Shown: piece after piece, positions 18,001-21,000 of the stretch | Layout of the letters: every line of letters starts with the position of its first letter | How positions within the stretch are numbered: the stretch's first letter is position 1 | NCBI GenBank assembly: GCA_046759165.1 | Contig: JBHIBS010000010.1 | Span: 1-52,022, forward strand | DNA: 52,022 nucleotides | DNA from: a bacterium | GTDB taxonomy: Bacteria > UBA6262 > WVXT01 | Direction: 5' to 3' | Program-made: the position numbers

Positions 18001-21000
18001 TTGTATTTTCTGATCGGTCTCTCTGTAATTATCTAAAGGGACAATTTTTATCATCGGCTGATGAATGATCTCGCCTAGAGATTCAAATTTTTTTGGATTG
18101 GTACCAGTCACTAAAATTTTTGGTCTCCTTAAGCTCACTACCTCTCCTACTAAAATGACCGCTGGTGGTTCAAACTTCTCTTTCTTTGCTTTTCCAACAA
18201 TGTCTTTTAAATTCCCCATAACTACTCTTTGCCCAGGTAGAGTGGCTTTTTCAACTATAGCTACAGGCATATCGTTTTTTAAGCCTGCTTTTTTAAGCCT
18301 CGTAATGATTCGGGGTAGATTTTCCATTCCCATATAAAAGACCAGTGTGCCTTGGCGAGGGATACTCTTCCAGGCGATGAAACTCGTCTTTCGATTCGCT
18401 TCGTGACCGGCAATCAAGGTAACCAGCGAAGCATATCTTCGATCAGTGAGGGGTATATTTAGTGAAGCGGCTACTGCCTGGGCAGCAGTTATTCCGGGGA
18501 TAACTTCATATGGAATGCCAGCATTATTTAAAGCTTCTATCTCCTGTCCTCCTCTACCAAAGATAAAGGGATCGCCGTTTTTCAACCGGCAAATAATTTT
18601 ACCTTCTCTGGCACTTCTAATCATTAATTGGTTTATCTTCTTTTGAGCCACAATAAAGCCATCCGAATAATGTTTGCCTCCTAAACTGGCAGTACAGATT
18701 TTTTCTGCTTGCGGACGAGCGGACTTTAAAAATTCTCCATTCACTAAATAGTCATAAATTATGATATCTGCTCCCTGGAGACACTTTTTTCCTTTAATGG
18801 TAATCAATTCCGGCTCTCCCGGACCAGCACCCACTAAATAAACTTTACCCGTCTTACTCATCGACTAATCCTTCCACCTTACTGCTTCAGCCATCTGACT
18901 CCGGCAAACGTTTTCTGGACAGAGGAAATAATCTTTTTGCGACTATATATTTTCTTCACTATTTCTTTAGTTCGTTCATCTTTTTCTCTTATTTCCAGAG
19001 CAAGTGACCCCTGTAATGGGTGAGGTTGTAAAATATCAAATGGAATCCTCTGGACTATTCTTTTCTCCAAACCTAAACGCACAAGGCCAATAGCGGCAAT
19101 TACAATAGCGTCTAAATCACTGTTATCTAACTTCCTTAATCGCTCTTCAATATTGCCTCGAATATCCACTATCTTAAAATCATTTCTGTAAGCCTGCAAT
19201 TGGGTTTTCCGACGTAAACTACTCGTGCCTATCCTCGCTCTATAAGGAAGTTCATCTAACTTTAGATTTCTCTTAGAAACCAGAACGTCGTAAGAATCTA
19301 CGGATTCACTTATAGCTGCAATAGTTAAACCGTTAGGGATCGACTCTGGCAAGTCTTTAGCACTATGTACGGCTAAATCGATTTCTCGGTTAATGAGTGC
19401 TTGTTCAATTTCTCTTGTGAAAAAGTCCGTACCTTCCAATTTCTCTAAAGGCGTCTCTTTATCCCCATCACCTGTAGTTTCAATCTCGATAATTTCAAAT
19501 TTCTGATGAGGATTTATTCTTTTTAATAGAGCTATTATTTCCCCTACCTGTTTAAGAGCTAAAGGGCTGGGTCTGGTGCCAATTCTAATAATACTGTTTA
19601 TGTGTGGCATACTACTCCTACCAAAATTATCGACAAATTTCTCCGTTTCCTCTTCCACAATTTTCTCGGCACGTTTTGCCTCTTCTTTTCTTTGTTTATG
19701 ATTACTTTCGATTATTGAGTTCAAGTCATCTAAGTTATATAAAATTACATTACTGACATTCTTTACTTCAGGATCTACATCCCGCGGTAAGGCAAGATCC
19801 ATTATAACCAAAGTTTTTCTTCGTAACTCCATTATCTCTGAAATTATTTCCCTTTTTATAATTAAGTGAGGACTTGCCGTAGCACTAATAACAATGTCCG
19901 CTTCTTTCAATTCCTCTTTTAATCTATCAAACCTGACTGCTTTCCCTCCCACTTTTGAAGCCAACAGGCAAGCATTTTCGTAAGTTCTATTGGCAATAAA
20001 CACCCCGGAGACTTCTCTATCTTTCAGATATTTAGTTACTAATTCGCCAATTTTGCCTGTGCCAATAATTAAAATTTTCTTTCCTGTTAACCTTTGCCAA
20101 AACTCCTCGAGCATTTTCAAAGCTACCTTACCTATAGATAGGTTACCCTGGGATATTCTTGTCTTTGTCCTCACAAGTTTTCCTACTGCGCTTGCTTTCT
20201 GGAATAATCTATTAAACAGCCCATTTGTTGTTCCCATTTCCTTCGCTTGTAGATATGCTGATTTCACTTGACCTAAAATTTGGTTCTCTCCGATAACTTG
20301 AGAATCTAAACCACTAGCTACACGAAAAAGATGCTTAATAGCTTCTTTATCTTTTAAAAGATAGAGATATTTACTATTTCTATTTTCTTCGAGGTGATGA
20401 TAGTTTACAAGAAAATTCCGTAATTCTACCTGTCCCATCTCCATATCATTAATACAAGTATAAATCTCCACCCGGTTACAGGTGGAAAGGATTACTGCCT
20501 CATCAATTGATTCCATCTCCAGCAATTTAGATAAAGCTTCTCCCAGTCTTTTTCTGGAAAAGGCAAACCTCTCTCTTATTTTTAAGGGCGCGGTCTTATG
20601 ACTTATTCCTATTAGAATCAGATTCATAAAATCACCTTTATTTCATCTCTGATTCTCTTAGCCAGACTTGGCGATTTTCCATTTGTTGATACACTAATTA
20701 CTGACTTCTTCTTCCTCATAATTGCTGGTAAAATAAAACTTGAATCCTTCGCTGAATCGGCTACATTGACTAAAATTCCTAACCTCTTTGCATCTCTGGC
20801 TATTTGGGCATTAACTTTTCGTTGGGAAGTCGCCGCATAGACAAGAAAGGCTCCCTTAAGCATATCCGGTGAGTATTCAAGTTTAACATATCTTATCTTC
20901 TTTGTCCTGTAAAGTTTCCTTAGCCCGGTGGTCAATTCCGGGCTAATTATCTTTACTTTCCCATCAAAGGAGAGAATATTCTTCGCTTTCCTCTCAGCAA

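Follow-up and report, generated by a model that had tools for sequence, protein, structure and literature searches.

How can a hydroxymethylbilane synthase (HMBS, HemC) build a tetrapyrrole if it has neither the cysteine that holds the primer nor the domain that carries this cysteine? According to passages of PMC7242693 and PMC13564367, the cysteine-bound dipyrromethane is the defining feature of the enzyme, and uroporphyrinogen III is reached by no other known route. The question is raised by the window (the whole stretch of 52,022 nucleotides analysed here), in which an earlier note had described a HemC of two domains, fused to HemA and placed in an intact siroheme operon. Pfam searches of the neighbouring genes bore out this placement, and the features concerned are:

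11890..24899 (-): co-directional sulfate-assimilation and siroheme cluster (ORFs and Pfam)
20624..21067 (-): sirC-like precorrin-2 dehydrogenase (PF13241 and PF14824)
18879..20627 (-): fused hemA-hemC frame, 582 aa (ORF and Pfam)
19623..20627 (-): HemA part, residues 1-335, catalytic and NADPH domains with Cys50, without the dimerisation domain (PF05201 and PF01488, no PF00745)
19623..19626 (-): junction, four consecutive T on the coding strand; in a close relative this run is one base shorter, which puts hemA and hemC out of frame
19608..19619 (-): Shine-Dalgarno-like AGGAG within the frame, followed by ATG (Met340), from which HemC probably starts by itself (site scan; the homologue P0002 begins here)
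18879..19610 (-): two-domain HemC, 243 aa, no Cys, no domain 3 (Pfam, alignment and structure model)
19410..19436 (-): clade-type lid, residues 398-406, Asp401-Phe-Phe-Thr404 replacing the Lys59-Gly60 lid (column comparison)
19353..19367 (-): catalytic motif His421-Ser-Ala-Lys-Asp425, E. coli 80-84 (alignment)
19008..19025 (-): hinge motif, residues 535-540, with His536 (E. coli Ala195) and the invariant Gln539-Gly540 (alignment)
17476..18861 (-): cobA-hemD fusion (PF00590 and PF02602)
16499..17473 (-): hemB (PF00490)
15102..16514 (-): hemL, class III aminotransferase, name inferred from family and place (PF00202)
13043..13894 (-): sulfite/nitrite reductase-like protein, likely a siroheme user (PF01077, PF03460 and Fer4)

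The genes of the cluster are ordered rrf2, cysH, sat, a PHO4-family gene, JAB, sirC, hemA-hemC, cobA-hemD, hemB, hemL, thiS-cysK, sir and thiF, with 17 bases from the hemA-hemC stop codon to cobA and a GC content of 0.40 for the operon and 0.42 for the genome. HemC was present in 2 of 12 genomes of the source phylum. On these figures, the recent gain of the operon that the earlier note states is a possibility only. Genome G007, of the same phylum, carries a normal HemC, as the earlier note had it, with three domains and the Cys loop.

Does the protein truly end before domain 3? On the 582-aa frame, Pfam placed GlutR_N at residues 6-156, Shikimate_DH at 176-305 and Porphobil_deam at 347-554 (profile positions 1-206 of 207), and found neither PF03900 (HemC domain 3) nor PF00745 (HemA dimerisation) at an E of 0.1 or below. 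The HemC part aligned to about residues 5-219 of PBGD chains from bacteria, which are 310-313 aa long, and passed TIGR00212 (hemC) with 256.6 bits over positions 1-221 of 293 (cut-off 164). Its predicted structure (pLDDT 89.2, disordered beyond about residue 222-223) matched 1PDA with an rmsd of 1.2 Å across 216 columns, and domains 1-2 have the periplasmic-binding-protein type II fold (PF01379, by Pfam and by the model). The only cysteines of the 582-aa protein, at 50, 58 and 220, all lie outside the HemC part, from which the cofactor cysteine of canonical HMBS (Cys242) is absent. Domain 3 was not found in the three frames 3' of the hemA-hemC stop, and PF03900 was not found in the source genome (G000; 92.4% complete, 165 contigs), with a control search positive in 11 of 14 cases. 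Our own domain-3 profile, run in six frames, gave a best E of only 4.5. The genome has one match to PF01379. Thus, as previously claimed, this is a cysteine-free HemC that ends before domain 3, and the only HemC found in the genome.

The HemA part contains both the glutamyl-tRNA reductase catalytic domain, with Cys50, and the NADPH domain (Pfam, TIGR01035); it matched positions 2-332 of 416 of TIGR01035, the dimerisation domain being absent. Short HemAs are frequent in related loci and also occur in G007, next to the normal HemC. The short form of HemA is independent of the form of HemC.

Is the fusion part of the mechanism? The junction was compared in contigs of runs X3 and X4; runs X6 and X10 cover hemC as short pieces only, not the junction. 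The X3 contig, from the same study as the possible source, crosses the hemA-hemC junction with 0 differences. The X4 contig, from another study, shows 140 differences in 2701 bases, with one base missing at 19623 and no other indel. Removing this base leads to a HemA stop at 342 aa, just beyond the hemC start (the other X4 differences nearby are covered only in part), and the X4 frame would thus represent two overlapping genes, which a single extra T has put into one frame here. An AGGAG lies before Met340 at the usual spacing, a site present at 3 of 87 internal ATGs in 13 window genes, and P0002, the closest homologue (86%) among the best 120 of 4208, is a 243-aa protein of its own that starts at the equivalent of Met340. 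The one-base absence in X4, the kept internal start and P0002 together suggest that the fusion is recent. HemC can probably still initiate by itself at Met340 and, judging from the sequence, is probably made both from this internal start and as the tail of the HemA fusion. The fusion is therefore real in this population, as X3 indicates, but incidental, a recent one-base event at strain level, and we discarded it as a mechanistic feature. That HemA-HemC fusions recur in other lineages was confirmed (P0123, P0131, P0144, L027 and L044).

How far does the two-domain form extend? PF03900 was listed for none of the best 120 of 4208 homologues; 115 of these measure 200-259 aa, 16 are Cys-free and the top Cys column reaches 64 of 120. 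The large family of short HemCs without PF03900 announced in the earlier note was thus recovered, with a range wider than the Omnitrophota, where 45 of 84 HemC-bearing genomes carry a normal HemC. In a set of 150 representatives taken at 50% identity, our own profile detected domain 3 in 89 and not in 61, and a Pfam check of 65 of the 150, picked for unusual length, agreed with it. A DNA pattern combining the lid and catalytic motifs gave at least 119 matches over GTDB genomes, of which 80 with flanks were used and 39 short ones left out; among the matches listed, 78 of the 80 loci lack domain 3. By their record titles, the loci listed come from Omnitrophota, Lentisphaerae (including Victivallis vadensis), Kiritimatiellae, Verrucomicrobia, Chlamydiae, Planctomycetes and Bacteroidota. 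A PF03900 search of 10 genomes from these loci gave no match in any of them, and the pattern had 0 matches in viral contigs. HemC is fused to CobA and/or HemD in 54 of the 78 short-form loci listed, and in 48 of these 54 the CobA or HemD begins 24-31 residues past the hinge Gln; E. coli Cys242 lies 44 past it. The fusion partners differ (HemA, CobA, HemD, LMW-PTP).

We collected 281 proteins and dropped 9 partial ones and 7 that lack domain 3 and have canonical lids, which left 174 short and 91 three-domain proteins. In a FastTree of 272 domain sequences, unrooted, with the signature columns left in and with a three-domain set biased towards proteins nearest the short profile, all 174 short proteins lay on one side of a branch (support 100, 1 change). 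The seven proteins with canonical lids (P0180, P0187, P0194, P0233, P0235, P0242, P0249) grouped with the three-domain proteins and were not counted as clade. Six proteins from small-genome Chlamydiota joined the short side (174 to 180 rows, support 100). The HemC part studied here lacks domain 3, carries the Asp/Asn-Phe-Phe-Thr lid and falls on the short side of the branch. On these alignments and loci, the short clade spans Chlamydiota, Omnitrophota, Lentisphaerota, Kiritimatiellota and some Bacteroidota.

Could domain 3 have been missed in incomplete genomes, or be encoded elsewhere? We scored 120 Chlamydiota genomes of at least 90% completeness (one further genome was unscored) and found PF01379 in 102 and PF03900 in 1, inside a 332-aa three-domain HemC frame. 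HemC and HemE (PF01208) were both present in the same 102 genomes and both absent from the same 18; HemB and HemC occurred together in 100, were both missing in 17 and were discordant in 3. This loss in step with the preceding and following enzymes is what is predicted for a working step, the genomes being kin rather than independent cases. The doubt over incomplete MAGs that came with the earlier note is largely lifted by this census, since PF03900 appears in 1 of 102 HemC genomes. Among 151 Omnitrophota, PF01379 was found in 84 and PF03900 over the cut-off in 45, each time directly behind PF01379; 39 genomes have the short HemC alone, and G260 carries both forms. A free PF03900 over the cut-off was found in none of the 120 Chlamydiota, 151 Omnitrophota and 10 other genomes; with the six-frame scan of G000, this led us to reject a free-standing domain 3 in the genomes censused. 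One faint 31-aa domain-3-like frame was seen in G257, a genome without HemC.

HemD (PF02602), compared by hand, was present in 45 of 45 Omnitrophota with three-domain HemC versus 25 of 39 with the short form only. Twelve of the 14 HemD-less short-only genomes were inspected: in 11 the operon reads sirC-hemA-hemC-cobA-hemB-hemL-sir with no hemD, and no other gene is shared between the operons listed; the remaining locus stops at the contig edge after hemC. With the HemD of the window as query, no match under E 0.01 was found in 5 HemD-less genomes. UroS sequences are poorly conserved and annotated UroS is missing in some organisms, as stated in a passage of PMC13564367, and the apparent absence of HemD from 14 of 39 short-only Omnitrophota, which are kin genomes, is a lead only. 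Such genomes argue against HemD as a universal stand-in for domain 3. The window itself does carry hemD, within the cobA-hemD fusion.

What remains of the active site? Residues are numbered as in E. coli by alignment, the median identity of the 174 clade members being 40%; the DNA pattern had supplied 78 of the 174, and counts are also given for the 95 selected without it. Human equivalents beyond two published pairs are presumed, from our own counting. The published pairs are Asp99 for Asp84 and Cys261 for Cys242 (in part of PMC8561815). Invariant in 174 of 174 are R11, Q19, F62, S81, K83, D84, R132, R149, R176, Q198 and G199; S13, D46, S129 and R155 are kept in 173, and R131 is relaxed (135 of 174). 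The kept residues are the substrate-site and first-two-ring contacts given in the relevant passage of PMC7959689. In the protein studied here the canonical site residues are all present: R352, S354, Q360, K424, D425, R472, R473, R490, R496 and R517, corresponding to E. coli Arg11, Ser13, Gln19, Lys83, Asp84, Arg131, Arg132, Arg149, Arg155 and Arg176.

Several changes mark the clade: (i) R101 falls from 90 of 91 three-domain proteins to 19 of 174 short ones, and its human equivalent bridges to Glu250 of domain 3 (passage in PMC10577081); (ii) T154, K158, E204 and K59 are also lost; (iii) among the 95 members, E22 (90), D48 (86), D60 (88, plus 6 Asn), F61 (93), T63 (95) and A82 (90) are gained; and (iv) 107 of 174 short proteins have Asp or Glu at position 87, versus Thr in 47 of 91 canonical ones, the corresponding human Thr102 binding cofactor ring c1 once it is displaced in ES2 (parts of PMC7959689 and PMC7907807). 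The human lid lysines Lys70, Lys74 and Lys79 are tolerant to change in the portion of PMC10577081 that treats them; the loss of Lys59 therefore says little, and we gave it less weight as evidence. A net-charge measure over positions partly picked post hoc was -1.6 for short proteins, +2.6 for canonical ones and 0 for the protein under study. No Cys column is shared by the clade, the best reaching 37 of 174, and no Cys or His column common to the 174 members was found.

How, then, might the tetrapyrrole be made? With the domain and the cysteine missing yet the rest of the pathway kept, a textbook reaction is probably carried out in an undescribed way. We favour, with a probability of about 0.55, the reading that the HemC part is a putative active hydroxymethylbilane synthase that needs no covalent primer, and so no cysteine-bound dipyrromethane, to assemble the tetrapyrrole. 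The first PBG would be held non-covalently and act as the acceptor, and Asp425 (E. coli Asp84) would deaminate every incoming PBG, leading to addition at the free alpha position. In ES2 structures the two newest rings are held by domains 1-2 and the cofactor rings are mobile, as described in a section of PMC7959689; the short enzyme would mimic domains 1-2 in this state, holding the newest rings while the incoming PBG is deaminated. The chain would stop at four rings, which would occupy the four tetrapyrrole positions of the canonical ES2 structure. Ring A, by its amino- or hydroxymethyl end, is probably held by the newly acidic lid and back pocket (Asp389, Asp401, Glu428, Glu495), which may alternatively close the cleft and thereby count the chain. 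The bilane would then be handed to HemD.

Consistent with synthesis on a non-covalently held PBG are the single HemC found in the genome, the kept site residues, the co-occurrence with HemB and HemE, the spacing of the fusions, the lack of a Cys column, the loss of R101 and the acidic position 87. Against it, the human enzyme does not tolerate changes of Cys261 and is damaged by almost every nonsense variant (passages of PMC10577081), R131 is relaxed, the charge contrast leaves this protein at 0, Thr404 and Ser469 might serve as anchors, and the loss of the ring A amine has no explanation in it. A homodimer prediction scored 0.00, which weighs neither way. A bolder version is tentative at best: the clade would be a primer-free PBG polymerase with no covalent intermediate, its four rings counted by the acidic pocket, serving almost all of the Chlamydiota sampled, and one branch of the Omnitrophota would make siroheme without UroS/HemD, either because the open two-domain enzyme forms isomer III directly or by making siroheme from isomer I.

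Is the primer instead bound covalently to another residue of domains 1-2, through an ether with Thr404 or Ser469, an ester with Asp401 or an N-alkylated His536? Among the 95 members not chosen by pattern, Thr404 is kept in 95 (canonical 42 of 91), Ser469 in 95 (canonical 62 of 91) and Asp401 in 88 (canonical 2 of 91), and the hinge His536 is found in 119 of 120 close homologues (best 120 of 4208) and in 5 of 6 small-genome Chlamydiota. However, just 56 of 173 clade members have this His, which eliminates it as a universal replacement anchor; 15 of 174 members carry Asn at position 60; canonical enzymes often have Thr63 and Ser128 too, which points to another job for these residues; and an anchor fixed in domains 1-2 could not retreat as the Cys loop does in the account given in part of PMC8561815. 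We consider such an anchor unlikely.

Somewhat more doubtful is a dipyrromethane or short oligopyrrole kept as a permanent non-covalent primer, on which the canonical six-ring cycle would run. The residues with which the holoenzyme binds c1 and c2 (K83, D84, S129, R132, R155, R176 and G199; contacts from a passage of PMC7959689) are indeed kept, but the contacts of the displaced cofactor given there (Thr102, Ser262 and the domain-3 arginines) are lost or acidic, and nothing evident would retain an unbound primer during product release.

A partner acting in trans, be it a free domain 3, HemD, CobA, HemA or some unrelated protein, could supply the cysteine or cap the cleft, as the 54 of 78 listed short-form loci with fusions to CobA and/or HemD, and the fusion here to HemA with its catalytic Cys50, might suggest. 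We regard this as improbable: no free PF03900 over the cut-off was found in the 120 Chlamydiota, 151 Omnitrophota and 10 other genomes, no Cys is shared in partner HemD (best 18 of 57) or CobA (24 of 58), the partners vary from HemA through CobA and HemD to LMW-PTP, and HemD was not found in 14 short-only genomes, though an unrelated protein encoded elsewhere might still act in this way. The search for conserved Cys in partners returned none except the catalytic Cys of HemA, the three of HemB and HemL columns at 26 of 33.

That the protein has lost its synthase function, surviving as a PBG- or bilane-binding chaperone or a relic while PBG is polymerised by another route, is highly improbable. 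The human enzyme cannot do without domain 3 and its Cys (in part of PMC10577081) and domains 1-2 have a periplasmic-binding-protein fold, but the catalytic Asp and the substrate-site residues are invariant across 174 divergent members, co-occurrence with HemB and HemE is strict, and an alternative uroporphyrinogen III route is not described in the pertinent passage of PMC7242693. Finally, although the genome is assembled as 165 contigs, an assembly or gene-calling artefact or a recent truncation is refuted by the X4 contig, which spans the stretch with no indel within hemC, by P0002, of identical length and end, by the 115 of the best 120 of 4208 homologues at 200-259 aa, and by the 78 of 80 listed genome loci that miss domain 3.

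A natural two-domain form in a whole phylum offers a direct test of what the cofactor and domain 3 are for. It bears on chain-length counting, which is still argued from ES2 and ES3 structures, and a two-domain HemC might serve as a model for a simpler PBG polymerase. Chlamydiae use a two-domain HemC and their hosts a three-domain one, a difference worth knowing for drug work.

How does this HemC compare with known systems? A description of HemC without domain 3 was not found in the literature searched (mostly open-access main texts); passages of PMC3949521, PMC13564367, PMC7242693 and PMC3738108 either call the cysteine conserved or invariant or leave the matter untouched. Although the class of enzyme is a known one and NCBIfam lists the short form under its usual name, the literature searched yielded no study of the proteins in that NCBIfam model. 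The model, NF002202 (PRK01066.1, 'hydroxymethylbilane synthase', 241 positions), matches the HemC part in length class and is passed at 384-427 bits by 4 of 4 tested small-genome Chlamydiota proteins from the same side of the tree, which shows that the short form has been catalogued and named by homology. The HemC part, in contrast, scores 198.3 bits against a cut-off of 251, as a sister branch and non-member. The HemA part, ending at about 335-342 aa, is similar to NF001909 (PRK00676.1, 338 positions), a short glutamyl-tRNA reductase without the dimerisation domain, but its score of 93 is below the cut-off of 478. With canonical HMBS (E. coli 1PDA/1AH5, B. megaterium 4MLQ, human 7CCX-7CD0; TIGR00212; PF01379 and PF03900) the HemC part shares the fold of domains 1-2 at about 40% identity, the catalytic Asp, the Arg, Lys, Ser and Gln residues of the substrate and pyrrole sites, and the place in the pathway. 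It differs in having neither domain 3 nor the Cys242 loop, at 243 aa instead of about 310, and its clade is set apart from the canonical enzymes by the loss of R101, T154, K158, E204 and K59 and the presence of E22, D48, D60, F61, T63 and A82.

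In one branch of the Omnitrophota, the siroheme operon carries a short (two-domain) hemC together with cobA and lacks hemD. Using a profile search, we found the HemD domain (PF02602) unmatched in 14 of the 39 Omnitrophota genomes that have HemC in the short form alone, as against 0 of 45 with the three-domain form. The loci of this branch are as follows:

L173-L184: hemD-less branch members (genomes G265, G275, G200, G271, G286, G178, G176, G255, G270, G285, G237 and G259)
L017, L027, L039, L046, L062, L079: further hemD-less loci of the same branch

In the last of the branch members (L184, G259), the PF01379 match of the short hemC is interrupted by one TGA, and the resulting frame is 205 aa long. 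Elsewhere, a single genome (G260) apparently contains both short and three-domain HemC, each in its own operon (L164 and L165).

Seven homologues (P0180, P0187, P0194, P0233, P0235, P0242 and P0249) have no domain 3, carry canonical lids and group among three-domain enzymes in the tree; one of them, P0249, is 375 aa long and continues into other sequence. These proteins may be either fragments or further independent losses of domain 3.

Short HemC also has other fusion partners: an LMW-PTP/ArsC-like domain (PF01451) in P0004, P0027, P0042 and P0126, and a C-terminal domain of ~170 aa at locus L158. The HemA part of the window fusion (19623-20627) is missing its dimerisation domain; HemA of G007 (L002:5-997), adjoining a three-domain HemC, is likewise short (330 aa).

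The co-directional window cluster (minus strand) and its upstream flank include, by Pfam domains:

11890-12789: ThiF/E1 protein
13906-15099: cysteine synthase with a ThiS-like carrier as N-terminal fusion partner
21071-21538: JAB protease
24456-26660: rrf2 regulator at the cluster head, with FMN-binding and ApbE genes upstream

On the same contig, rrf2 and cysK-like genes each occur a second time. Together, the ThiS-like/cysteine synthase fusion, the ThiF/E1 protein and the JAB protease constitute a predicted protein sulfur-carrier route.
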